DNA from: Octopus vulgaris
Lineage: Eukaryota
Length of the DNA stretch: 64,000 nucleotides
Assembly (NCBI GenBank): GCA_951406725.2
Contig: OX597822.1
Location: forward strand, 98,270,001 to 98,334,000
Reading direction: 5' to 3'
Shown: piece by piece, positions 6,780 to 63,714 of the stretch
Layout of the letters: every line of letters starts with the position of its first letter
Position numbering within the stretch: the stretch's first letter is position 1
Notes under the pieces: model-generated
Database searches by the model: none
Told to the model about the DNA's origin: nothing
Seen by the model: the letters and a program-made list of their open reading frames with translations, nothing else
Translations under genes and position numbers: made by a program

Positions 6780-7480
6780 AACATAATTTAGCCGATACGA
6801 TCGACCAGAATTCTAAACTGGTACTTTATTTTAACAAACCAGGTGGGGCGAAAGTTAAAGTAAATCTTGGCAGCATTTAAAATAACAATAGCAATAATTC
6901 TTTCTATTATAGTCACAATTCCTGAAATTTCGGGGAAGGGGAATAATTAAGTTCATCGTCCCCGGTGTTCAACTGGTACTTAACTTCGAAAGCATGAAAA
7001 GCAAAATCGACCTTGGTGGAATTTGAAGTCAGCATTTTGTCTTGCGTGTTAACAATTCTGGCATCTCACCGTCTTAGTGATAATTGTTTCGAATTTTGGC
7101 AGAATAGTAGTAATTTCGGGAGAGAGTTTAAGTTGATTACATCGATCCCAGTATTCTACTGGTATTATTTTATCGTTCCCGAAAGGGATAAAAGATAAAG
7201 TTAACATCGGTGAAATTTTAACTTAGTGAAAATGGACGAAATGCCGCTAAGCATTAATCCCGGCGCGACAACAATTCTTCCAGCTCACCACCCCACTATT
7301 GCTACTAATATTAATCCCTTCAACTATATGCACAAGACCTGAAATTTTGGTGGAGGGGACTAGTCGATTACATCGACCTCAGTGTTTCATTGCTTCTTAA
7401 TTTATCCATCACAAAATAATGTAAGTCGAAGTCGACCTCGGCGGAATTTGAACTCAGAATGTAGCGACATATGAAAAAAA
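6780..7480 (-). mobile_element. Cluster of old SINE family 1 copies with tail type A
   Basis: Repeated degenerate gaaaggcaaagtcgacctcggcggaatttgaactcag bodies, each followed on the sense strand by ...aaatttcagg.cttgtgc.tatag..gaa.g.attatt-like tails. Confidence 0.7.
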
Positions 7481-8258
7481 CTATTTCTTTACTACCCACA
7501 AGGGGCTAAACAGAGAGGACAAACAAGGACAGACAAGCGGATTAAGTCTATTATATCGACCCCAGTGCGTAACTGGTGCTTATTTAATCGACCCCGGAAG
7601 GATGAAAGGCAAAGTCGATCTCGGCGGAATTTGAACTGAGAACGTAGCGACATATGAAATACCAATTTCTTTACTACCTACAAGGGGCTAAACAGAGAGG
7701 ACAAACAAGGACAGGCAAACGGATTAAGTCTATTATATCGACCCCAGTGCGTAACTGGTGCTTATTTAATCGACCCCGGAAGGATGAAAGGCAAAGTCGA
7801 TCTCGGCGGAATTTGAACTGAGAACGTAGCGACATATGAAATACCAATTTCTTTACTACCTACAAGGGGCTAAACAGAGAGGACAAACAAAGACAGGCAA
7901 ACGGATTAAGTCTATTATATCGACCCCAGTGCGTAACTGGTGCTTATTTAATCGACCCCGGAAGGATGAAAGGCAAAGTCGACCTCGGCGGAATTTGAAC
8001 TGAGAACGTAGCGACATATGAAATACCAATTTCTTTACTACTCACAAGGGGCTAAACTGAGAGGACAAACAAGGACAGACAAACTGATTAAGTCGATTAT
8101 ATCGATCCCAGTGCGTAACTGGTACTTATTTAATCGACCCCGGAAGGGATGAAAGGCAAAGTCGACCTCGGCGGAATTTGAACTGAGAAAGTAGCGATAT
8201 ATGAAAAACTGCTAAGCACTTCGTCTGGCGTGCTAACGATTCTGCCAGCTCACCGCTT
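7481..8258 (-). repeat. Tandem array of four 182-bp SINE family 1 units (tail type B) behind one SINE head
   Basis: aggggctaaac recurs at 7501, 7683, 7865 and 8047 (period 182); tRNA-like head at about 8205-8258. Confidence 0.9.
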
Positions 8259-10727
8259 ACTACTAGTATTGATAATAATAATTTTATGAAGGATAAAGTG
8301 GTATCACAAAAATTAAATTACAATAAATTATCCGGTGTACAACGACCATGAAAATCCTATAGGAAATATACGATAGGGTGAAATTGTAGCAGCAGCAGGG
8401 GCGAGGTATCCAGCTATAGAGCCAACCAAATAATCCAACAAATCTTGGACTACACTAATTATCAAATGCAAGTGCCTTCTTTCGGTTGTTGGCTTCTTTT
8501 TGCAGTCTAACGCTGTTATCATTCCCGTCATACGTCAGTCTCTTAATTTTGAGGACCGGGTGCAAGAACTTGACCATTCATTGCTTTTACGTGGTAAATG
8601 AAAAGAATAGACGAGCATTTGACTAAAGGAAAGAAATATCAGTCTTGTCTTATTTATCACGCCCAGCACACTGCTATTTTTGACATACCCAGTAAGCAGA
8701 ACAAAGCTCCCCTCCCCTTTCTGATCAAAAGACCCAGCGGGGCGATTTTCGCGATTAATTTGAGTAATAATCAAATTTTTCAACTTTAAACAACAGCTGT
8801 TCAATATTATTTCTGAAGCCAGCTATATTCATGTAAAGAAAATTTCCGATGCTCTGTGCGTATCTGACAGACCCGGCTGGCAGTATCGGTGTGACAGTAG
8901 TTTTTTTCTCGAAATATTAATTACTTAACTGGTATCAAATCTAGGTCAAGTTTCTTTGAAAGTTGGCCATAATAGCTGAACTAACAGTCCTGTGGATTAA
9001 TTTGCTTAGTTTTTCCTTGCTGATGCTCATGAACTTATCTTATTTCCACCGCTAGCCACAAGTGGTAGGACACTATGATCAGCTAAATATATTAATGATA
9101 ATAGTCCCTCAATTATGGTCCAGGACTGCCGCTTTATTAAAGGAACAGGTTGTGGAAAAAGTGCTTAAAAAATGACATCTTATCTCTTAGACAAATGCGC
9201 TATATCTCCTATATCACAGTTTGTTTCAGCCTTTCGAATAATTTCAAGGTCTGCCTGAGATAGCCGCCTTTTATCGACCCACATCCTTCTCTTTCACGTT
9301 TGAGAACCGGGAGAAAGAACTACTCTCTCTCCTATCTTCGTCTTCAAATAGCGTTTGGATGTTGTACATGGGGGTTTGACTAAGTGATAGGTTTCCTTTT
9401 ATTTCAACTGTAATGATGGGTAACATAATTAATTAGAAAGTTTCAAAGCGAAAACTTCGTCACAAATTTCACTAATCTATTTTAATCCCTACAGGAAAGA
9501 GAAGTACCCATCTCTTTGACTGGTGGTCACTTAGTGCATAAAACATTTAGAAATGAAATGGTAAGAAGAAAACAACGAACAATGCCAACGTCACTGGACG
9601 GGAACATAAATAAATAATCACAACTGACAAGGAGGGTTCGTTTACTTGTCCAATAATTAATTAATAAGTGTGTGGATGGGTTAAATACCACAACGTATAA
9701 CTAAATGATTCCAGATTTCTTTCTGCAAGATTTTAAGCAATGTAAAAATTGATAAAAAAAAACATCTAATATTTCTAGAATTTTGTTGTTGTTCACGAAA
9801 TACTGTTGGTCTGTGTTTGCATTTGATAATTCTCTATTTAAGCTAATTTTCACAGTTTTCTTGTTGCATTGTCACTTCGTATCATTCATGCATCTAGTTT
9901 TATAATGCCTATTTTATTATGAAATTTGGCAGCCAGTGTTATCGTTTTAACACGTAGCAGTTCATTTCACATTATCGTTGTGTGTATCTGTGTAGGTTTA
10001 ACATATGAGAAAAAGACAAACAGGCCTGAAGTTATATATAAATAATTGCCTTCCTGAAATAATTGGCCAAGACATATCGCTTTTATAGACGTCATTCACG
10101 TCAAAACAAGTGAAATAATTAATATCATTTTTGTATCAAGTTGTGACTCTTCAGTGAAAGCTCAGTACATACACAATTCAAAACACATTGGCAAATACGC
10201 ATTTATTAATTTTTTTTTTCTGGGGAAAATAGCAGTTTCTTTTTAACCAGAACAATTGCAATACCTGGGTTGAACGTTATTAATATTAACATGTCTACAA
10301 TAATTGGGGAAAATTCTGACAAACTGATTCTAGTTCTCTATAAATTCACGCTTCAAATCCCGAGCGGAGTTGTCTTTGATTTTTACCATATAGAATCTGT
10401 AGACTGTAGGAATAATTCTTGGTGTTATTTGTTCAGGCTCGTCTTGTTCTGAGTTCAAATACCACTGAAGTCAATTGTGTTTCGTTCTTTCGGGATCAAT
10501 GAAAGAAGTACTTGTTGAGTCCTTTGATCTATGTAATTGACAAGCTGATATCCTTTAGTCTCTTACGTAGCATCACTTTGGCTGTAGTCCAATGTGCATC
10601 CAATGCGCTAGGCTTTGACAACTCAGTTTTCTCAATTTTTTAGTATCCACTCTTACCATGGTATTTTAAAGCCTGATTTTGCGTATATTTTTTCCTCTCT
10701 TCAATATCTGTTTTTGTTGTTGAAATA

Positions 10728-11051
10728 TGTTCTATTACTACCCACAAGGGGCAACATGAAGGGGACAATACAATCTGATGTGGGGTCAGATACACGAATG
10801 GGTTTACAAAAAGGCGAATTTAAAAATTTACAAAAATTACAAAAATAGAAAAAATCGAATGGGGAACAGACCGGAAGACATTACGGATGGAGTGGGAGCG
10901 GGTTTAGCTCGGACCCCACGAGCCCCGCCTCCCCACTGATACTTTGGTTTCGTCTATGTTTACATTTATGTGGTATCATCCACTCGCAACTTTCGTGCTA
11001 CATCTTTCCATCATTCTTCATACACTCTCTTAGTCAGGCATTTTCTCTCCA
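10728..11051 (-). mobile_element. 5'-truncated Tx1/L1-like LINE 3' end with 15-bp TSD
   Basis: TSD tttgttgttgaaata at 10713-10727 and 11052-11066; encodes ERKCLTKRVYEE*WKDVAR like the ORF2 C-termini at 49900 and 52450; has the shared gccccttgtgggtagtaatagaa tail. Confidence 0.8.
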
Positions 11052-11066
11052 TTTGTTGTTGAAATA

Positions 11067-11326
11067 GTATGATTAATATTCGTGGAGAAATCCCACAAAA
11101 TCCTGCAATTGTTATTCTATGTCAAGAGCCTTTCCGCTACTTTGAATTCACGCACTCGGCTAACATACCAGTGCACTTTTTTACCGACAGAATCCTGCCT
11201 GCACTTATACGCTTTTTGTGCTAGCTTACTGCATTCATTTAAAATATCATTGATGCTTCTAATTTCCCACATCATTTCCTCTTTGAGTTTTATCCAAATT
11301 CGTTGTAATTGTTTGGTAGAAATGAT
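11067..11326 (-). pseudogene. Decayed R4/Dong-like (REL endonuclease) LINE fragment that hosts later insertions
   Basis: INDILNECSKLAQKAYKCRQDSVGKKVHW...ENNNCRILWDF matches the zinc knuckle-RHD-ILWDF region of R4/Dong/NeSL-type ORFs. Confidence 0.7.
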
Positions 11327-13013
11327 CTGTAACTTTATTGCCCACAAGGGGCGCACATAGACGGGACAATACAAGACGTGGGACATATAACAATGAAAAA
11401 AAATTAAATATGATAATATGAATGACAATGAAAAATGAAAATGGAACCACTCGCCGCACTTTTTACGTTTTAAAACCTGATCCTTCTAGCGTATCAAAAC
11501 CCGTTTCTTCCAATAGCTTTTCCCATGTCGTGTAATTTGGTAGTAAATCCCAGTAATAATCTAACTCCCAATAACTGTAACCGTGTTCAGACGTATATAT
11601 TATCGCCTCTTGCACCTTTGTTGGGAGCACACACCTGTGCCACTCCCCGATGTTATCAAATCCAGGCGTTCCTACTTCCTTTACCTCTTCCCATGAATAA
11701 GACTCATGTATCAATTCGTTATTGGATCCATATAGCATGAAAGCTTTGCATTTCTTTTTCCTTTTATTTTGACTTGGGGGAAGGAGCTTGGAATTCTTTT
11801 GTGTGTGTTTGCTTTCTTCTTTCGTGTCGGATTGGAATGGGTAGGCTTAAAGTCTGCTGGGGGAGGGGGGTCTGGGAGGGTGTGTGTGTGGCATGGGTGT
11901 GGGTCAGGGTTTACAGTTCGAATCACTTGCCTTCTTTCTCTTCCTTATGGTGACTTTCTCCCACGTATCCTCCGTTGCTATATCCTCCCCCTTTCTGGTT
12001 TCTTCCTTTCCAGACCTCTTCGGCCTCTCTTCATTTTGCTCCTTTATCTTGTTTAATCTCTTCTCCTCTGCTTTCTTGGTTTGTGAAGGACGGTCAGCTC
12101 TAATGTTGCCCCTTCTAGCTACATTTGAAACTGCGTGGAACTATGCCCTCCACTGACCGTCATTATCACTTCATCCATGATTATGGACGTGATATTTTCT
12201 AGTCTCGGCTGATCCTTGGACAATCATGTTTAGTGTTTGTCTCTTCCATATCATGCTTTCCTTTTTTGTGGCCTGGAGAACCACTATGCTGTCCTCGTTA
12301 CCAAAAAGGACACCGTCGACCACACAGGACACATAGATTTCCGGCGGGATTCCTTCAACACTTATTCTTGTTGCTCTTAGTCCTCTGTAAGTGGGCAAAA
12401 ACATCACTTCCTCACTCTTGATAGATGTCGCCGCTTGTTTCCTTGCAGATACCGCGTCCTTGAACCTCACCTCCACTACTCCAAACATCGAACCTCTTGC
12501 GAGGTACCGATATCTTTCCAGATCGGCCTCAGAGACTTTTCCAGCTGTAGTTACAATATCAATTTTACCTTTGCTTATCGAATAAGTTCTGTACGTTATT
12601 GTCCTCCCCTTAATGCTGTTTCTTGTCTGAGAGGGTGGAGGTGGGGGGACAGCTTTACCTCAAAGCCCTCCCGACTAATTAAATCTTTATGCCTTCCAAA
12701 TTCTTCAATACTTATTTCCTTCTCCTGGCATTTTGCCACGTCGGCAAAATTCCTCTTCTCCATATTTAGTTTGTTGTCCATTATCTTCTGGGGTGGCGGT
12801 GACAGCTTAACGTCACCACCTACTCTAGTTGCCATTTTTTCACATCTTTCAATATTTGAAAGGTCTACCTCCTTTTTCTTCACTTCTGCAAAACTTTTAA
12901 GAATGTTATCCATCCTTCCGCATGCACGAACCAGTTCTTCCTCCGAAGCGGACAATCCGGAACGACTAAAGTCTGAATGAAAACTCCTTTTTGTCATGCT
13001 ATCTCTCGATTTT

Positions 13014-13082
<69 letters not shown>

Positions 13083-13187
13083 ACAACTAGAAACCACTGC
13101 TAAAGCAGCACAAAACACTCAAACACCACAGAAAACACCAGCACAAAAAGCAAACTTCAGAATGCGAGACCTTACTGCTGTATATGG
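11327..13187 (-). mobile_element. Short ORF1(gag)-only retroelement A with Tx1-like 3' tail (decayed)
   Basis: Flanked by tttggtagaaat(g/t)at repeats; frameshifted ORF with SFAEV, VKLSPP, FLPTYRGLRATRISVEGIPP and a degenerate zinc knuckle; tail gccccttgtgggcaataaag; (CT)n in the 5' UTR; no RT or endonuclease seen. Confidence 0.7.
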
Positions 13188-13416
13188 TTTGGTAGAAATT
13201 ATTTAATTTTTTTATTACCCATAATGCGCGCACTCAGACTGGACAAGACAAGACGTGGTGGCGTATAACAATTAAAAAGTAAAAATATGATAACTATGCA
13301 TGACAATGAAAATGATAAATGAAAATGTGATACCTACCCCACCTCAGTAGCATCATTTAATTCCTTTTTAAACCTTATTCATGTTTATCCCATATCTTTC
13401 CTCTATTTCCCCATTT

Positions 13417-14058
13417 AGATCTTTTCCTTTTGAACGGCAGATGTCAGCACAATTTCTAGTTAACTAAACACTTTTAAACTTCGTATACTGGTAGAATGTG
13501 TTTATAAAACATCATTTTCTCTTGGTTTTATTGAGAAAATTCTATAGTTTGTAAGATATTTCGTCTGAAAATCCGAGCATTTCGGTAATTTTAACCAATC
13601 GATTACCTCCATTCAACTAAAATCATTTGCTGCGTCTGAAACTGAGACAACATCCTGTAACTAACCCTAAACCTCCCCCCCCTAACCCTAACCCTATTTT
13701 TTTTTCTTAATCGTTAAATTAATTTAATTCCATTGCTTTAGTTTTTTTTTTACACGCGTAACAATTAAATTAATTTAACAATTGAGAAAAAAAATTTAGG
13801 GTTAGGGTTAGGGGGGAGGTTTAGGGTTAGTTACAGGATGTTGTCTCAGTTTTAGACGCAGCAAAGGATTTTAGCTCAAAAGAGAGCATAGGACTGGTTA
13901 AAATTCGAAAAATTAAACTACGCTAAACAAATAAATTACAATTTTTTCAAGAAAGTCAAGAGAAAAAAATGTTTTATTTTGACACATTCTACCAGTATAC
14001 GAAGTTTTAAAGTGTTTAGTTAACTAGAAATTGTCTGCCGTTCAAAAGGAAAAGATCC
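13417..14058. mobile_element. Fold-back MITE with (G/A)GATCTTTTCC TIRs and internal (TAACCC)n
   Basis: TIR gatcttttccttttgaacggcag / ctgccgttcaaaaggaaaagatc; near-palindromic throughout; 8-bp TSD ccccattt/cctcattt; related copy at 62806-63206. Confidence 0.85.
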
Positions 14059-14147
14059 CCTCATTTTTATACCGCTTGACTTCTTTATGTTACATAACAC
14101 CATTCTAAATTTAACACCTTCCTTATACACCTCTACCTGTCTTAACC

Positions 14148-14349
14148 TACTTCTTTATTACCCACAAGGGGCTAAACACAGAGGGGACAAACAAGGACAG
14201 ACATAGGTATTAAGTCGATTACATCGATCGACCCCGAAAGGATGAAAGGCAAAGTCGACCTCAGCGGAATTTGAACTCACAACGTAACGCAGACGAATTA
14301 CCGCTAAGCATTTCGCCCGGCGTGCTAACGTTTCTGCCAGCTCGCCGCC
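14148..14349 (-). mobile_element. SINE family 1 (tail B)
   Basis: Sense head ggcggcgagctggcagaaacgttagc; approximate TSD cctcta(c/t)ctgtcttaacc on both sides. Confidence 0.85.
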
Positions 14350-17141
14350 ATATACTCCTCTATCTGTCTTAACCGACATCCCTGCACCAACATGCTAAAT
14401 GACTGTAATTTCCTTTTTCTTTCTCTTTCATATTTACAAATTTCGTGTCCTTCCATCTTGTTACATTTTCTACCAATTCCATGTTTACCCCTTTGACTAA
14501 AACACACGCATAACAAGTGGGAGAGGAGGATTGTGTTTTTTGTGTGTTTGTGCTTTTTTTTCTTTTTTGTGTCCGTGGGGGAAGGTTGGATTCGAGAAGG
14601 TATGAATGGGATGGGTACGGGTTGGGGTTCACACTGACTTTGCTTCTTCCTCTTCCTCTGCTTTCTTCCTTCAGCGACTTCCCATGTTTCTTCCTTGTCC
14701 GATTCTATCGTTCTTTTCACCGTCTTCGGCTCCTTGACCTCCTCCAGGACTTCCTAGTAGTTATTTAGAGGGCAGTCCGCTCTAATGTGGCCCTTTTGGC
14801 CACATTTAAAGCAGCGAGGGATTCTGCCCTCTTTCCAAATCTTGAGCAGTGTTTCTAGGATCGACACCGTTTCCACCATATTTTCCAAAAATTCTACTGT
14901 ACTTTGCACTGTGACATCAAGTACCGTTCCTTTCCACTTGCTAGCCTCCGTCTCTGTGGCATGTTGTACGGCTACTGTTTTCCCCTTCCCAGAAGCACCG
15001 TCGCTGCCACACAAGCCACGTCTATGTTAGAAGGGATTCCCTCCTCCTTGACCCTAGAACTTCTTCCAAGCTACGTAGGTAGGAGGATCAACCTTTCTGT
15101 CTTCAATAGGTTTACTAAGTTCCCCTTCACCTTTTCCTTGCTTTTAAAATATACATCGACAGTGCCATATCTGCTTCATCTGGCAAGATATTTTATATCT
15201 TGCCATATTGACCTCAATGCCTTTTCTATCACATCCGCAGGTTCACTTTCAATTCTTTTTCTTTTACTGAATAAATTTTATAGACTATCTTCTTTTCTTC
15301 TATATTTCTCATAACTTCCTGAGGTGGTGACAATTTCACGTCACCATCTTCTCTAACATTTTTTCGAAATTTATTTTTAGGAATCTCCGTCACCTCTGCG
15401 AAACTCTTTTTCTTCAGGCACTTGTCCATTACTTCTACCGCTCGCACGATCTCATCCTCCGGATGATAATTCTTATGACAGCTCTGACCCGCTTTGGTCT
15501 GAATAAAACATGTTTTTTTTAAAGACTTAGCCATCCCTCCTCAAATGTGGAGAGACAGCACAAGCACAAAAACCGCTGCAAAACAGCACAAATTTTTCTA
15601 GATAACAATTCACAGCAACTCGATTTGAGATGCAGAAGATATCTACAGTATACGCTTTGGTAGAAATGATTGAGTGGAAGTCTTATAGCGTTTTCTTATA
15701 TTCTTTACAGGGTGGTGTTTATTTCTCTCTCTCTCTCTCTCTCTCAACGAAGAGAAAAATAAATGAAATATACTGGAAGGTGATTTAAATATCTACGGCT
15801 TCTGCTTTTCAAATGTGTAATACTTTACGAATGTATAAATCTATTCCTCCAGAGACAATATACTTTGCATTAAATAGTTATGCTCGTTTGATTGTAGTTT
15901 CAAATCTGAAAGTATTCGAAAATACTTCCCATTACCTTAAAAGTAATAAAATATAATTTAAAAACAATAATGAAATAAATGTGATCGACAAAACTATTAA
16001 ATTCGTGAACTGTTCTCAAAAGTTCAGAATAATTATTTTGTTGGGGAGGATCGAATTCTTCTTCAGTCTCTGTGGACTTGTGTCAATGTTATAAAACATG
16101 GTTAATTTCAATACTTATTGTATTTAATCCTAGTTTAGCTTCCATTAAACTTTCCTTTTAGATTAAGCAGATCTATGATCAAAGACACTCTGCTCTTGAC
16201 CACTGAGATCACGTTAATGTGTCTAAAACTAAATTATCTTAAGATGTTATGATGTAATTCGAGAGAATATGATTACTATTTCTTACAGGTCAAATGACTG
16301 CATAGATAGAGTTGTTGTTGTCCAGATCAGTCGTGTCCACTCATTATTGGCTCAGATTGTAATTAAGTTAATGATAATAGCAGTGAGTAACACAAAGTGT
16401 GAATTTCCGTCATAAAAACTACTAAGGCATTTAATTATATCACTTTATATCTGCCTTTAAATCCTGTGATGGTCAACCTTACTTTTCATTTCTCCAAGAT
16501 CGATAAGTGACATTCTTATGATGAATCAAATGTCCCCATTTCATTAAGCTAGAAGCTTTAGGCTGTCTATAAAAAAAAAAATCAATAGTTTACTCATCAG
16601 TGATACTTCATCAATTTCACCAGTTTGTTTTAGTACGTTCAGGAAACGTATTTCCAAGAAAATTCCAGACATAGTGATCGTTAGAATTTCATTATTCTGA
16701 GTAGAGTGTCATCGATTTGTACCAGTTATTTTACTTTCAATGGCTCAGTATATAAAATCGTAGGTAGAAAACATTCATGTCGATTATGAGGGAGTGCTTA
16801 ATAATTTTCAACGGTTCATTTAGAGAGACCGATTTCTTGTCTTTAATTTCGTAAATGAGATAAATGTAAGATTTCTCACAACGTGAAATAATAATACCAT
16901 TATATATTTTGATTTCGTTTTCATGTATTGTAATTCAGCAATGTGGATGCCATACTCCTGTTGATAACCTACAACTGGAATTGAACCTAGAAGCTCAAAG
17001 TAATGTTAAACATAGAGATAATTAAAAAAAATGAGCTCGACCATTTAATGACACATTAACCCAGTAAATATAAATGCCTGTGATAGAGATCACTATTTCA
17101 AATACCACTAGTGGCATAAAAGTACGTAAAGGAGCACATGA

Positions 17142-17629: not shown

Positions 17630-19756
17630 TTTTGAAGGCTTGCTACTTCCGACCCTAAGTCACGAAAAGGTGAAGAGTCCCTCTCCACAGGACGCCTCTA
17701 TTTACAAGGTAAGTCACGTCTATTCACATTGGTTGTATAAATGCCCGTGACCTGATGTCGAGTTGGAAGCAAGACGCTTCCTAAATGATATCAGGTCAAG
17801 AAACTTTGATGCAATTGTTGCAACGGAAACTCGGGTGAAGTGGCCAAGAGAGCTGCTCCACCTCCTGAATGGCTACGAGAAATACGTTTCTCCAAGTCGG
17901 GCTGGTGGTGGAGGTCCTACTAAAAAGAAACCGGTTAACCGAGGAAAGGTTGTTTTTTTTCTGATCTAGAAGGCAGGCTGGTCGTTCTCGGCCTGACTTT
18001 CAGTTCTGTCAAGACAATCAGGCTGGCTGCAATTTATGCACCGAACGTTATGGGTTCACAAAGTGAATATTTTCGTGACCTGTGCAAGTTCATGGCCATG
18101 TCGCATTCGCTAGTATTGATAGGAGACTTTAACACAATTTGTGACTCACGCACAGATTGTGTTGGCTCGAACATGAATAGAAAATATAACCCTGGCTTTC
18201 GGGATGTGCTACGTCACTTTCAACTGGCAGATCCGCAGTAAACGGCTATTGAGGTTTACGAGACGGTGGCAGGAGCAACGATCAACCGTGCAAAGTCGGT
18301 TGGTTTGCAGCTCGGCACCTGGGTTGGCAAGTCGATGCATTCAGACAGCGTTGTTGGGCGCTGGACGGAGGGACCGGTTAAATTGCTGGGAGTCTGGTTT
18401 CGATCAGGCCTCCAGATAGAAAAGAATTGGACGGAGGTTTCGAGCAGGGTGGCTGCAATAGTCAAGACCTGGTCTTGGCGGTGGCTATCCCAGAAAGGGA
18501 GGACGGAGGTGGCCAATGTGAATATGGCATCGGTCATTCCCTACCGCCTGACCGCCGTGACCTGTCAGTATTCGTGGGTGATCAGGTTGGTGAGGCAGCT
18601 CTTTCGCTTTTTTTTGTTGATGGGCAAGTCGCCACTTGTGAAACGCTCTATCTGTTTTCAGAAGTCGTTAAAGGGAGGTTTAGGGATGCCTTGGTTAATG
18701 ATGCGCAGGCATGCGTTGAGGTTGAGACATCTCTAGATTCTCCTGGATGGTGAATGGGTGTGGTCTCCGCCAGACAAATGTTCCCCGAGTTCAAAAGTTT
18801 TTGCAAACAGGAAGCCTGGTGTTCTCGTAGACCGAGATCGAGTAAGTGGCATATGAAGTGTCGTAAGGCCCTCCTGCTATTCCGGCGCTTGGGCAACGCC
18901 AGCGGTGGGGGTTCTACACGTTTTTGATATAGTGGGTTGGTAGAGTCTGAATGTAACGATGGCCTGGGGGTGGCGACTCTAAGTCTCGGGTATATTCAAC
19001 TCGACAGCCTGTTCCACCATACATTCGGGTTGAGAACGTTGCACAATTTTTATAAGTCGTTGACCTGGTAATGTTACAGGGGAGCCTTGCCCATTCGGGA
19101 TAAACTCGCAAGACATGGAAAGTCTCACTCTACGACCTGTCGAAGATGTGGGGGTGGGAAACCGTCCCTCACGCTATTGTCCAGTGCTCGGAGATATCTC
19201 AACACCTGTTGTCCGGCGAAGGAAGAGTACAGCTGTCCACTGGGTCAATTATAAAAATTGACCAACCGGAATTTTTTTACAAATGAATGTAAGAATTGTT
19301 TACTCACTGTTGTAGCAATAGCGAAAGAGGCAGTATGGTAGCTTAGGACAAAAGGTATTAAAACGGGTAACTTTATTTCCAGCCACGAGATCGTTTTTCA
19401 CTTTTCACTTGAAAAGGATGGTGTGGTTGCTGAAGAGATGCCTGTCGGAGAGTGTGTTCACAAAAGATGGAAGCATGTTGCATGAGTGCTGTGCGTGCAA
19501 GGAACCATGTGAATAAGACGAAAAAGAAAAGAACAAAACAAAAGGTACCAGAGATAGATTGGGTCTTGTTGGGACGGAGCGTGGCTTGATCATCTCTTCA
19601 TTTGTATTGTCTCTGTATTGTTAATTTCATTCGATATTTTAATATTTTATTTAAATTTTGAAAGTCACATTATATGTAAAATCATATCGCATTACTGATC
19701 CCATCAGTTGTTCTGTCCATTTCTATGTTCGGCCCCCGGTGGGCAATAAAGGAATT
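17630..19756 (+). mobile_element. Internally deleted Tx1/L1-like LINE (APE endonuclease fused to ORF2 C-terminal part)
   Basis: IGCINARDL..NDIRSRNFDAIVATETR, IYAP and LIGDFN (APE), then jumps near 18240 to GATINRAKS..VKLLGVWF..KGGLGMP (post-RT), a zinc finger remnant and tail ggcccccggtgggcaataaagg. Confidence 0.85.
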
Positions 19757-49560: not shown

Positions 49561-51987
49561 AACTTTCTTTATTGGCCACCTGAGGCTGAACACAGAGGGG
49601 ACAAATACAAATGTAGAGCTTTTCTTTTCGAAAATGAAAAAGAACATGTAAAACAAAAAGAGAACAAGTATAAAATTCTGATCAAAAGGGATCGGAAATA
49701 AAAACGATCAAAAGGGATCGTGTATCACAGAAGAACTTTTTAAAAAGTAAGAAGCAAGATTAGCGTTATCCGTGGAAAGAAAAACCTACGGAAAAGACCA
49801 CGGTAGCCTCAGGCAGGGAAGAATTAATACATGAGAGTAAGGTGCTCTCTTTCTCTCTGACCGATTTACAGGATCATGTTCAAAATGGTTTCGCTGCTCG
49901 CACGCACCATCTTTGCTACATTCACCCACCTTTTTTGAAACTTTCACGGGACAAAACTTGCCTCTCCATTCTCACCTTCCTTTTCAAGTGGTACTTGAAA
50001 AAGTTGATGAGCGATTGGCCAGAGAGGTAAGTGTTTGTCTCTAATCCTTTTGCTCGAGTCCACCACACACATTTTTCACCATGGCCAACAGTACGATGAA
50101 GACCGCCTTGCCTTCCCAGTTGAGGGAAGGTAGCGGAGGAATCAGCACGACAGACTCGGCCGATAGGCGGACTCGTCTCAGACGTAACAGCAGCCGTTCG
50201 GCATAAGCCCACACGTCCGAAATGGTTGGACACTGCATGAGTGCATGCAGCACAGTTTTGTCGCTCTGACCGCATCTCGGGCAAGTCGGTCCGCTGTGTC
50301 CCGAACCGTGCCTGTAGAGCTTATCCCGAACAGGTAATGCTTCTCGATAGCACTGCCAGGCCAGAGATTTTTGGTGATTGTCCACATAGGTCCCAGCCAT
50401 AAAGTTGTCCTGAACAGGCGGGTCAGGCGTTTCTTGTCGACGCCCAGATTCGGCCCAGGAACGTCCTCTATAGAACGCCTTTGTTGCAATGAAGCCGCCC
50501 ACGTTTGGTCCCGGACGGCAGTGTTGCTTGAGAGCAACGCAACACGCGCGGTGCCATTCGCCTAGCCTCGGTCTCTGTTTGATCCACGACTGTAGTTCGG
50601 CCAAGGAGACGAGCTGCAGGAAAGCGCGCCGCACAAACGGCGACCAACCTGCTTACCGTCGTCTATGAAGCGCCTGAGATGTCGCAGTCTCAGCGCATGT
50701 CTACGCATTATCAACTACGGCATGTCTAGCCCTCTATTTAGCGGGTGTTGACAGCAAATGGATCGCCTAACCATCGGAACGCTTCCTTTCCACAGGTAGC
50801 GGAAGAGTATGAATTCCAGTTTGGTGATGGTAGGGGCGGGTCAAGGCACGACGGTCAGACGGTCGATTTGTTTGTAGATCGACACTATGACGGTGACGTC
50901 GTCCGCGTATGCAGACACGCTCCTGCCGCATCCCAGCTCTCGTGGGATGCCCCTCAGCGTCGCCAGCTTCTGCAGTAGTGGTTCAAGACTTAATACATAG
51001 AGAAGCGACGAGAGGGGGCATCCTTGACGAACCAAACGCATGATGTTAAATGGTCTGGATAGATGACCAATTACGCGAATTACCGAGCGGATGCCGCTGT
51101 ATAAAGCAGCGATCCAATCGCGGAAGATGGAACTGAAACCAGCCACTTTAAGGACAGCCTCCAAGTAGTGATGGTCTACCCTATCGAAGGCTTTTGATTG
51201 ATCCAAATTGATCATGCAAGGATCCTGTCTATGATGTAACGCATCAGATGGAGGTTGTCATGGATACTCCTACACGGTACGGTGCACGTTTGCGCCTTGT
51301 CGACTAGCTTCTCGATGACAAGCGCCAACCTCTCGGCTAATACTTTGGCCAAAATTTTTTAATCTGCTTTGAGCAGAGTGATGGGCCTGAAGTTATCTAT
51401 GACGTCCCCCTTGTTTGGATCTTTCTTTAGCAGTGCCACTGCTCCTCGCTTTACAAAGACGGGGATACTTCCCTTTGCTGTCAGTTGCAACAGACTACTG
51501 CCATGACGCCTCCAAACAAGTCTGGCATATGACAATAAAGTTCGTAGGGCAGACCATCTAAGCCTGGTGACTTGTCTCTCGCGCATCTTGCCATCGCATC
51601 CTGTACGTCCGCAGCCGTGATGGGTCTTTCACGGCACTCCGTCTCTCTTGCTGAGAGTCGTGGCAGGCCATGCAGGTAGGCACTAAAGTCGTCTCTGCGT
51701 TCTGACCCACCAGTTATCCTGAACAGTCAGGCAAAGTGTTGTTGAAAGGCCTCACACATGCTTTCAGGCTCGAGTAATTCGCGCCCCTGTTCATTTGTAA
51801 GTAACCTAATGGTTGCTCTGTTGCCTCGTTGCGCCTCCACCACTCGAGCCTCTCGGGCAGCTCCAACTCCTTCACCCTTCAGAACACACATCGTAGCTCT
51901 GACAACGCATCCTTCGTGTTTGGCGTTGAGGTGTTGATTGAGGGCCAATTCTAAGTGCCTCTTCTAAATTCTTAACTAGGTCTCCAG
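49561..51987 (-). mobile_element. 5'-truncated, internally deleted Tx1/L1-like LINE
   Basis: NFRPITLL, INLDQSKAFDRVDH, VRQGCPLS, AYADDV RT motifs; CPRCGQSDKTVLHALMQC zinc finger; tail gtcccctctgtgttcagcctcaggtggccaataaagaaa. Confidence 0.9.
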
Positions 51988-52080
51988 GTAGATATGTAGA
52001 TAGATATGTAGGTAGATATGTAGGTAGATATGTTGATAGATATGTAGGTAGATTTGTAGGTAGATATGTAGGTAGATAGG

Positions 52081-54750
52081 TTTCTTTATTGGCCACGCTG
52101 GGCTGAATATAGAAGGGACAAAATACAAAGTAGAGCTTTTCTTTATGGGAAGAAGAGAAGGGAAAAAGGAAAAAAGAAAAAAAGGGTCGAATTCCGATCA
52201 AAAAGGATCGTGTAAAAAAAAGTGGGGCCGATCAATAGGGATCGTGTATCACAGAAATGTCAATGTAGAAAGAGAAAACAGATTAGGTTTGTCCGTGGAT
52301 AGAAAAGCCTACGGAAAAGACCACGGGAACCTTGGGCAATAGTGTCAAGTAAAAAGAAAACACATTAAGTGGCTCTCTTTTTTCCTTTCGTTTTTTTTTC
52401 CATTTGGTTCATAGGAATATGCTCAAGCTGACTCCGTTATTCACACGTGCCATCTTTTTTTGAAGCATTCACTAGACAAAATTTGCCCCTCTAGTCTCAC
52501 CTTCCTCTTCAAGTGATACTTGAAGAAGTTGATGAGAGATTGACCAGAGAGGAAAGTGTCTATAAATCTTTCAGACGCGTCCGCCATACACATTCTTTCG
52601 CCATAGCCACAAGTACGATGAAAATGGCCCTTCCTTCCCGTTTCAATGAAGGAGACGCAAAAATATATACGATATTGACGGACCGAATATGGAATGTCGA
52701 AAGGTCTCGATAGATGTCCATTTACGCAAATTACGGAACGGATGCCTCTGTACAAAGCAGCTATCCAGCCGCGGAAGACGGGACCGAAACCAGCCGCTAT
52801 GAGGACAGCCCCCAAGTATTGATGGTCTACTCTATCTAAAGCTTTGGGTTGATCCAAATTGATCAGGGCCACACCCATGCCAGATTACATAACTACCCTG
52901 TCTATGATGTAGCGCACCGGTTGAGGGTTGTCATGGATGCTCCGGCTAGGCAGGGCGCACGTTTGCGCCTTGTCGACCAGTTTCTTGATGACAAACCTCT
53001 TGGCCAAAATTTTCCTGTCTGCATTAAGCAGAGTGATGAGCCTAAAGTCGCCTGTTATGTCCCCCTTGTTTGGATCTTTCCTCAGCTCCTCGGCTCACAA
53101 TACCGGGGATACTTCCGTTTTTCAGCCAGTTGCAGTACACTGCTGCCAAGACGTCTCCAAATAAGTCTGGCAAGTCTGGCATACACCTGTAAAGCTCGTA
53201 GTGTAGACCATCCAAACCCGGCGATTTGTCCCTCGAGCATTCTGCCATCGCGTCCTGCACTTCCGCCACCGTGATGGCACCTTCGCAGCACCTTGCCTCT
53301 CTTGGCTAGAGTCGTGACATGCTGTGTAGATAGGCACTGAAGTCTACCCTGCGTTCTCGCTTGCCACTCGTCCCGAATAATCAGGCAAAATGCTGTTGAA
53401 AGGCCTCACACATTTTACTTGGCTCGAGTAATTCGCGCCCCTGTTCATCTACCAGATCCGAATGGTGGCTTTGTTACCTTGTTGTGCCTCCGCCACCCGT
53501 CCCTCTAGCGCAGCACCAACACCTTCGTTCCTTAGAGCACGCATCCTAGCTCTGACAACACACTCTTCGTGTTTGGCGTTGAAGTATTGGTCGAGGGCCA
53601 ACCTCGCCGCCAAAACATCGGGTACGGTGCCACTTCTAATCGCCTCTTCTAGCTTCTTAACTATGTCACCCTCTACCCTGTTTCTATCTATGACTATTGC
53701 TTTGCTATACTTAATCGCTTCTGCTATTTTTGCTCTCTTAAGGGTAAACCACCAGTTGTTGTTAATGGCTCCCATCAAAGCCTTCTTTACTAGCGTACTA
53801 ATACAGTCTCTGAAAGCCTGTCTCGACGGGAAGACGCGTTTAGTTTCCAGTACCCGGGACTCTGCCTATGTGTCTTATCTAAGTCTAGCGTACACGTCAC
53901 AAGTTTGCGATCCGTGTAGTTGACCATGTGGAATTGTGGACACCCTACGCTATCTCTATCTACTGCCCTGCACAGTATCCTATCTAGATACGATCTCGAC
54001 AACCCGGTGCGGTTGCTCCACGTCCATGTTGGCGCATTCGGGTGGTCGAGTCGGTACCTGTCAGACAGTTGAAAGCATCTGAGCAGATCTCTGAGGCATT
54101 TGCATCCTCGTCTATTCCTATCTTTGCCCACGTAGTCTAGATGCCTGTCCAAGGTAGCATTCCAATTTCCCGCTAAAAGTAAGGGACGTTCCTAGGAATA
54201 CTTCTACACATCGAAAGAAATCCAGCCGACCTGTTAAAGGTGGTGCGTAGATTAATAGAAGTCGAAAAGAGCACCCATTGCTGCTGTCGTCATCCGGGAA
54301 GACCAGTCTACCCTCCGGGTCTGCGAAATTTGTCTTTACTTCGAGATCCAGACTCTTGCGAAAAAGTACCGCCGTGCCACTACCGCCCATTCTCAGCAGA
54401 CAGGGAAAAAAATAAATGTTAAACTGTCCACCAAACATGGACTTTACGGCCCTTGGATAATGGAGTCTGGTCTCACTTATGGCTATGATTTCTAACTTTT
54501 GTGACTTTATTTCATTTAAGAGTTTCCCTTGTTTGCAAGGGGACCCCAAGCCACGCGCGTTCACACAACCAATTTGATCATAATCCTAGTGAGTTAAAAC
54601 ATAAATGAAAGGAGCAACATTGTTGTTGATGATGGCTCCCATCAAAGCCTTCTTTACTAGCGTAAAGTTTTTGCTTTCTTCTCCTTCAGTTTGTCGTCGA
54701 GGAGATCCCAATAATGTTTTTGTGAAAGGTATTTCTGGCATTTACCAGAA
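52081..54750 (-). mobile_element. Internally deleted Tx1/L1-like LINE (APE plus partial RT)
   Basis: GCVNARGL..ISETR, IYAPP, TWTWSN..SYLDRI and PGYWKLNAS (APE), KSPGLDGL, INLDQPKALDRVDH; same tail type. Confidence 0.9.
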
Positions 54751-62805: not shown

Positions 62806-63206
62806 GGATCTTTTCGGTTTGAACGGCAGTTTTTTCTAGCGTTGTCATATGAAATTGTCACCCATAATTATGACCCTAGTATCCATCTATTGCATTTCAA
62901 TCTGTTTTAGGGTTAGGGGTGGGGGTATCTTTTTTTCTTCCCAAATGTAAATAAACCCAATCTGTTTCTTAAACGAGGGACATATTCATACGGCACAGAC
63001 TCTTTTTTACCTCAATAGACGTCAGTGATTTGTTGAAATTGCAGAAATTGAAGAAAAAAACAAATATCTTACAAACTATAGAATTTTCTCAATTAAGCTA
63101 AGAGAAAAAGATGTTTTATAAACACATTCTACCAGTATACCAAGTTTTAAATTTTTTAGCTAACTAGAAATTATGTTAAAAACTGCCGTTCAAACCGAAA
63201 AGATCC
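62806..63206. mobile_element. MITE related to 13417-14058
   Basis: TIR ggatcttttcggtttgaacggcagtttt / aaaactgccgttcaaaccgaaaagatcc; shared subterminal sequence. Confidence 0.85.
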
Positions 63207-63714
63207 AATACGTTCTACTATTTTTCTCCGAGATATTTTTATTTATAACTTTTCTGAAGTTGATAAATTTGAGGGGTGGGGGTTAATTGATTACAACGAC
63301 ACCAATGCTCGACTTGGACTTACTTTATCGACCTTGGCGGAATTTCAATTCATAATGTAAAACCGAAAAAATGCCGTAAACTGATCGACAGTTTAAATTT
63401 ATCAGTTAAGTAAGCTTCGCCGGAATTTGAACTTAGAATACAGAAAATCAGAACAAATACCACTTTTTAATTCGTTTAAAGAAGTACTAGTAATATACTT
63501 GGAATCTACTCCATCGGTTATATCACTTCTTAATAAATATCCGAATCGAAATTCCACAGCGTCAATTTTGTCGTTCGTCTTATTCCAAGTACACTTCTAA
63601 TAAATGGAAATGAATCCTAGTTAAAATCCCATCTACAGATATTTTGCTGTTCATTGTGTACTGAAGAGAGAGAGAGAGAGAGAAAGAGAGAGACTCAGTC
63701 CTTTATTATTCAAT

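Follow-up and report, generated by a model that had tools for sequence, protein, structure and literature searches.

Two elements at one insertion site

How did two different retroelements, neither with a visible reverse transcriptase (RT) or endonuclease (EN), come to stand one behind the other at a single target sequence, and what copied them? The question is raised by elements A and B in a 64,000-nucleotide (nt) window of the Octopus vulgaris genome, the whole stretch of DNA analysed here, to which all coordinates refer (labels such as L002 or L124 denote genomic loci retrieved as relatives). We conclude that A and B are very probably decayed copies of a long-lived non-long-terminal-repeat lineage that encodes open reading frame 1 (ORF1) only, likely derived from a Tx1-like long interspersed nuclear element (LINE) and likely copied in trans by the EN and RT of autonomous Tx1-like LINEs through a common 3' tail.

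The original prediction had described the locus as A and B alternating with three copies of one target-site duplication (TSD), in the order TSD-A-TSD-B-TSD, and a scan of the window agreed: the 15-mer TTTGGTAGAAATKAT was matched with 0 mismatches at exactly 11312, 13188 and 15656, bracketing A and B, and the other 10 window matches all carry 3 mismatches, which is the chance level. Since no retrieved relative has the 15-mer at its ends, it is a TSD and does not belong to the element consensus. The inner TSD copy equals the outer copies, therefore the stack was formed in place, and co-transposition of A and B from elsewhere as a single dimer is ruled out. The insertion order of the two cannot be fixed, as either order fits the sequence. 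The array consists of the following features.

11312..11326, minus strand: TSD copy at the 3' end of A (15-mer scan; missing from the ends of relatives)
11327..12781, minus strand: subfamily-Y part of A, with a decayed ORF1 (predicted RRM-RRM-CCHC, basic linker, C-terminal domain; stop at 11463) and the 3' tail
12782..13187, minus strand: subfamily-X part of A, delimited by the switch of best hits, with a 5' untranslated region (UTR) carrying (CT)n at 13022-13081, the ORF1 ATG at 12997 and the N-terminus
13188..13202, minus strand: middle TSD copy, 1 mismatch (15-mer scan)
13203..15655, minus strand: B, a decayed ORF1-only element, with ATG at 15534, intact CCHC at about 14772-14813 and tail end at about 13211
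13418..14057, no strand: palindromic insert in B, foldback-like or resembling a miniature inverted-repeat transposable element (self inverted match of 78% over 666 nt; not in the relatives L033 and L039)
14148..14357, minus strand: short interspersed nuclear element (SINE) with a tRNA head, nested in B, with its own 17-bp TSD at 14131-14147 and 14358-14374 (window family D15/D20)
15656..15670, minus strand: TSD copy at the 5' end of B (15-mer scan)

Both elements lie on the minus strand and have the predicted sizes of about 1.9 kb and, without nested inserts, 1.6 kb: A measures 1861 bp, and B 2453 bp or about 1605 bp minus its two inserts. The absence of RT and EN was confirmed, as tblastn found no ORF2 sequence in A or B, and so was the common Tx1-like 3' tail (82% identity across 116 bp). 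The motifs SFAEV, VKLSPP, LPTY and EGIP are present in both elements as claimed, and the CCHC knuckle attributed to both is intact in B, where it matches zf-CCHC (Pfam, E 4e-7), but decayed in A. The claim of common 5' ends holds only as a weak likeness (score 67 versus a maximum of 53 among 300 shuffles), and ORF1 is broken in both elements.

Moreover, A is a chimera, in which bases 1 to about 406 match subfamily X (L030/L171/L172) and the remainder matches subfamily Y (L002-L005). The best matches in a sliding window change from X to Y near A position 400 or so, and the joint contains an 8-nt microhomology (12774-12781). From about position 407 to its end, A is 78-81% identical to L002-L005 at the DNA level, and its ORF1 shares 60% amino acid (aa) identity with that of L003; the chimeric structure accounts for the two VKLSP motifs in A. 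Such a chimera could have arisen by a template switch during reverse transcription or by a later deletion across a three-unit stack. B groups with L032-L034 in the core DNA tree (support 98/89). At L003:1470-1500, a 5'-truncated A-type copy lies directly behind a SINE tRNA head, while no SINE follows on the 3' side of the copy, which is possibly a SINE-head/ORF1 chimera. Of the inserts in B, the SINE carries the same 3' tail as the ORF1-only elements, according to the tail alignment, and the palindromic one (640 bp) has (TAACCC)-like runs at its centre and a related piece at 63062-63208; Rfam returned only hairpin matches for it, all sub-threshold.

A separate lineage with a conserved ORF1

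The 2.8-Gb genome yielded at least 62 and at least 43 matches in DNA searches with A and B, respectively, and at least 109 in a protein search with an A-like ORF1. Twenty further loci, mostly stop-free, were picked from 79 other protein matches and comprised 10 autonomous copies with ORF2 and 10 ORF1-only copies. De-duplication left 137 distinct ORF1 cores, 124 without adjoining ORF2 and 13 with ORF2, two of the latter being adjacency artefacts (L171, which is followed by a separate element, and the fusion L188). Had the other copies run on into ORF2, A and B would have been one-off deletions; the 124 cores that do not do so bear out the predicted family of non-autonomous, ORF1-encoding relatives of Tx1-like LINEs, which is present in multiple copies.

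The conserved 3' tail is reached by 79 of the 124 ORF2-less copies, at a median of 735 bp past the zinc knuckle, which is about where ORF2 starts in autonomous copies (536-823 bp). At least 1.3 kb of room is available in 35 of the 45 tailless copies; an ORF2 scrap (about 150 bp) occurs in L174 alone. Clear TSDs were found in 21 of the 61 copies tested, and 18 of these 21 measure 1.47-1.86 kb, so that the unit can be described as about 1.5-1.9 kb long with one ORF1 and TSDs of about 15 bp. Intact young copies exist, such as L121 with an ORF1 of 445 aa; constant length and an intact ORF, both proposed as checks, were therefore found. A tail of about 45 nt is common to the ORF1-only elements, autonomous LINEs (L092, L114, L126, L151) and a SINE. 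A conserved stem-loop in it was rejected, RNAalifold giving no consensus pairs in 19 tails. In being multi-copy, of constant length and equipped with their own TSDs, the elements correspond to the HAL1, HeT-A and Ag-Sponge type, and a single ORF homologous to LINE ORF1 without ORF2, together with a 3' end common with an autonomous partner, places them among the ORF1-present non-autonomous LINEs. Separately, L124 and L129 are young, nearly intact head-to-tail ORF1-only arrays without clear TSDs between units, possibly products of template jumping, and an autonomous LINE directly adjoins the L129 array. Four sequencing runs, guessed to be RNA, have contigs that cover L124, which gives no evidence either way on expression.

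Alternatively, A and B might each be an ordinary Tx1-like LINE that lost its interior independently and was dead on arrival, with no self-propagating lineage behind them. Their type of ORF1 is indeed homologous to autonomous ORF1s (about 42%), both copies are broken, and the window itself holds an internally deleted LINE (17700-19752). However, the knuckle-to-tail distance is constant over many subfamilies and the copies have their own TSDs. Furthermore, the protein tree unites 17 stop-free ORF1-only cores in a single clade (94/95), separate from 11 autonomous ORF1s, and none of these 11 full-length autonomous ORF1s falls within it. The DNA tree of 122 cores agrees, save for L188 nested inside and a few tailless cores on the autonomous side. 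Among ORF1-only cores the proportion of synonymous differences (pS) is about 0.68, near saturation, and that of nonsynonymous differences (pN) about 0.31; the median ratio of nonsynonymous to synonymous substitution rates (dN/dS) is 0.2 over 78 pairs with pS 0.5-0.74, another 51 pairs being too saturated to score. The separate clade and the dN/dS of about 0.2 imply that the lineage does not consist of one-off deletions, and that explanation, largely refuted, is very improbable. Purifying selection without an RT of its own argues for cis action of the ORF1 protein (ORF1p) on the passenger RNA.

Proteins of O. sinensis and O. bimaculoides also nest within the ORF1-only clade (90/91), including Octopus-annotated proteins named 'uncharacterized' or 'CCHC-type', which suggests that ORF1-only elements are being annotated as host genes in Octopus. 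A protein-database search with the full ORF1 gave nothing when word-based and 279 matches with HMMER, and 9 of the 10 nearest ORF1 proteins looked up come from Octopus or Argonauta. The model of the L121 ORF1 shows two compact domains at about 72-240 (predicted local distance difference test, pLDDT, 74-91), the knuckle, a linker without predicted order and, at the C-terminus, a small domain for which the single-sequence model has a pLDDT of 46. The best Foldseek matches of this model are tandem RRM proteins (E 5e-6), and VIA likewise pointed to RRMs (Z 8.7, rmsd 2.7, 82 aligned). ORF1 therefore consists of two predicted RRMs and a CCHC knuckle, the type I architecture, which is described as consistent with Tx1 (PMC5203782). 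Pfam matched only zf-CCHC and no Transposase_22, that is, not the mammalian-type L1 ORF1 of HAL1 sensu stricto (coiled coil, RRM and C-terminal domain). ORF2 of the autonomous relative L114 contains RVT_1, Exo_endo_phos and zf-RVT, the apurinic-like endonuclease, RT and zinc-binding parts found in the Tx1 clade. The parent LINEs are likely Tx1-like, judged from ORF architecture and targeting, and their closest RT matches carry no family name; the lineage likely arose from such a LINE by loss of ORF2. L114, with ORF1 and ORF2 intact, belongs to a young autonomous Tx1-like family (L111-L117), all seven copies of which lie in (CT)n microsatellites.

Target choice, stacking and probable mobilisation in trans

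A 3' flank common in register with another locus was observed for 44 of 78 ORF1-only copies, as against 11/74, 10/73 and 8/69 for downstream controls. Among the targets are two SINEs, hit in their heads, repeats that we take, from their translation, to be mariner elements, hit at two positions, the ORF1 of another Tx1-like LINE and further repeats of unnamed type. In several copies, for instance L023, L075, L076, L118 and L120, the repeat that forms the 3' flank resumes on the 5' side of the element, beyond the TSD. Four of five copies of one clade occupy the rep1 site and five of seven of another occupy one mariner site, both being small samples. Several subfamilies, likewise in small samples, have more than 20% of their flanks in one repeat, the proportion used to call a family target-specific (PMC4494074); the subfamilies of A (Y part) and B do not, and neither does the window 15-mer. 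The predicted target specificity can hence be upheld as frequent in the wider lineage, but not for the 15-mer or the nearest relatives of A. As a recurrent family target the 15-mer was rejected, because a genome-wide search for the tail followed by the 15-mer matched only A, B and one SINE end. Although the array site borders a decayed R4-like LINE fragment, the tail with the R4 motif had one match in the genome, a SINE 26 nt away, and no recurrent R4 target emerged.

Two sites are common with autonomous copies, one joining L157-L160 to L124 and the other L251 to six ORF1-only copies; the L124 array ends in the ORF1 of another Tx1-like LINE, at a site used by four autonomous copies. Mobilisation in trans by a partner's ORF2 protein (ORF2p) is likely, and these common sites are an indirect sign of it; established LINE biology suggests the following course. 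The element would be transcribed from its own 5' UTR and its ORF1p, predicted as RRM-RRM-CCHC, would coat its RNA in cis, which could explain why ORF1 has been kept under selection. ORF2p of an autonomous Tx1-like helper would then recognise the passenger RNA at the common tail, nick the target and start target-primed reverse transcription at the nick, and since it is the helper that nicks, the helper would mainly set the landing site. In the window, this nick would have been used again, the second element entering one of the two TSD copies left by the first, giving TSD-B-TSD-A-TSD. Stacking is a common habit of the family, as another Tx1-type tail lies directly upstream in 22 of 108 copies. 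Sites are also reused between unrelated subfamilies: ORF1 core identity is below 70% in 35 of 67 same-target pairs. At one locus, L127 (G000:C10:101171100-101180300), a single SINE-head site is occupied by four ORF1-only units from two ORF1 groups that lie very far apart (49% core DNA identity); copies of one TSD separate the units, which have a tail variant in common. Its divergent group is a candidate for a second lineage of ORF1-only elements; two independent origins are not claimed, since a single clade is compatible with the outcome of the approximately unbiased test (p 0.47).

Several points weigh against this account. Searches were seeded with ORF1-only sequence and scored top candidates only, clade support of 94/95 is just below the strict threshold and becomes 90/91 once other species are included, and in L188 a truncated ORF1 is fused to a piece from the middle of ORF2. 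Of the 44 common flanks, about 9 represent re-fetched loci, likely segmental duplications or tandem self-ends, so that about 35 are left after this check, which was confined to the 44. The 3' flanks of A's nearest relatives are unrelated, with no visible target specificity, and neither genome search (tail with 15-mer, tail with R4 motif) found a helper for the window's own site, so that reuse of that exact site is explained by analogy alone. Finally, target tracks ORF1 subfamily (mean core identity 0.725 versus 0.621; 0/2000 permutations), a correlation that fits a pairing of subfamilies with helpers as well as it fits free choice of helper.

This correlation is what would be expected if the passenger chose the target, its subfamily ORF1p or tail variant picking one helper or guiding insertion, in the manner in which HeT-A Gag guides TART to telomeres. 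Tail similarity is also higher at the same target among different subfamilies (0.747, n=35) than between different targets (0.655, n=690), and the units of L127, from two distant groups, have one site and one tail variant in common. However, the same sites are used by subfamilies with only 49-67% core identity, some tails at one site are unlike (at the mariner site, L079 versus others, about 0.52), different targets are occupied in six pairs whose core identity is 78% or more, and the pairs in these statistics are not independent. We consider a passenger-set target rather unlikely.

The window stack might also have needed no sequence-specific endonuclease, if the junction of resident tail and TSD was a preferred priming site that paired with the tail of the incoming RNA. 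The uniqueness of the window site in the genome, the seemingly non-specific subfamily of A and the frequency of stacking (22/108) fit this idea. So do the two nested inserts of B and its longer terminal branch (0.14 versus 0.046), from which A may have inserted behind the tail of B, although branch lengths depend on sampling. Most other TSD-sandwiched stacks, in contrast, lie at recurrent targets (L007, L076, L127), and priming at the junction is again a doubtful explanation.

Returning to helper-driven copying in trans, a broader picture can be drawn, for which we put the chances at slightly below even: an ancient octopod passenger, still young in some copies, would have maintained an RNA-packaging protein of its own by selection over tens of millions of years, swapped 5' ends between subfamilies, ridden many target-specific Tx1-like helpers and stacked as a community at fixed sites in SINE heads, mariners and the ORF1s of other Tx1 elements. 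If true, this community would be a natural system to separate the roles of ORF1p, 3' tail and endonuclease in target choice. Since one genome holds both intact, young passengers and the autonomous helpers that match them, with their different targets, the target choice of LINEs becomes directly testable.

Surroundings of the array and comparison with known systems

Three further features lie near the array.

10728..11051, minus strand: insertion C, the 5'-truncated 3' end of an autonomous Tx1-like LINE, with TSD at 10713-10727 and 11052-11066
11067..11311, minus strand: host DNA, a decayed C-terminal LINE fragment which, from its ECSKLA...WDF motif in translation, we take to be R4/Dong-like
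17700..19752, plus strand: internally deleted LINE of the autonomous Tx1-like type with the same 3' tail class, as context outside the array

Insertion C had been put forward as a third insertion with a similar TSD. This was not borne out: its TSD is out of register with the 15-mer of A and B, its family has other flanks, and a motif common to the two TSDs was rejected. C is 92-96% identical to 24 other retrieved copies, in all of which ORF2 sequence lies upstream. The host fragment has 39 other genomic matches at 72-85% identity. The copy at 17700-19752 lacks ORF2 residues of about 180-700 and belongs to the family L092-L110, in which the 3' tail is followed by the same point of a SINE tRNA head at 18 of 19 other loci (3' flanks only). 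The window also contains a 182-bp tandem array of headless SINE units (7360-8253), which fits a SINE, itself carrying a Tx1-like tail, that repeatedly inserted into its own head, and two more decayed Tx1-like ORF2 remnants on the minus strand (49931-54576).

Among known systems, HAL1 (half-L1) of mammals is a non-autonomous LINE derivative of the L1 clade that encodes ORF1p only and had several origins (PMC5753468). The octopus element resembles it as an ORF1p-only derivative that kept its 5' and 3' parts and makes TSDs. It works like HAL1, yet it is not HAL1, because its ORF1 is of the RRM-RRM-CCHC type without Transposase_22 and that of HAL1 of the mammalian L1 type; in addition, it ends in a conserved sequence tail instead of poly(A), and many of its subfamilies are site-specific. 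The passages on ORF1-present non-autonomous LINEs in PMC5786205 name HeT-A (Jockey), HAL1 (L1) and Ag-Sponge (CR1), with no Tx1 parent among them, and the protein of such bipartite elements is thought there to multimerise with that of the helper. HeT-A also forms targeted head-to-tail arrays (PMC13534243), a likeness to the octopus elements, whose parent clade differs from those of HeT-A and Ag-Sponge and whose targets are many interspersed repeats and not telomeres. Families of the Tx1 clade (Tx1, Keno, Kibi/Koshi, Tx1-Mar) have fixed insertion points in DNA transposons, microsatellites and sequence derived from small RNAs, and Kojima (2015) described TSD-sandwiched tandems and mariner targeting for the crocodilian SINEU mobilised by Tx1 (PMC4494074). 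Fixed sites and sandwiched passenger tandems are found here too, and the autonomous L111-L117 resemble Kibi/Koshi in sitting in (CT)n. Unlike those families, which are autonomous or non-coding, the octopus passenger carries a conserved ORF1 of its own and has radiated into many subfamilies, which together use at least 10 targets. In the literature searched, no account of cephalopod elements that are both Tx1-like and ORF1-only was met, and Repbase, Dfam and published repeat supplements may hold them; the available portions of the O. vulgaris repeat paper (PMC13282606) name L1-Tx1 once, in a table, as a category, and in those of PMC8967140 it appears only as a category. An old, diversified and site-specific Tx1-like version extends the class of ORF1-only LINEs beyond L1, Jockey and CR1 parents.

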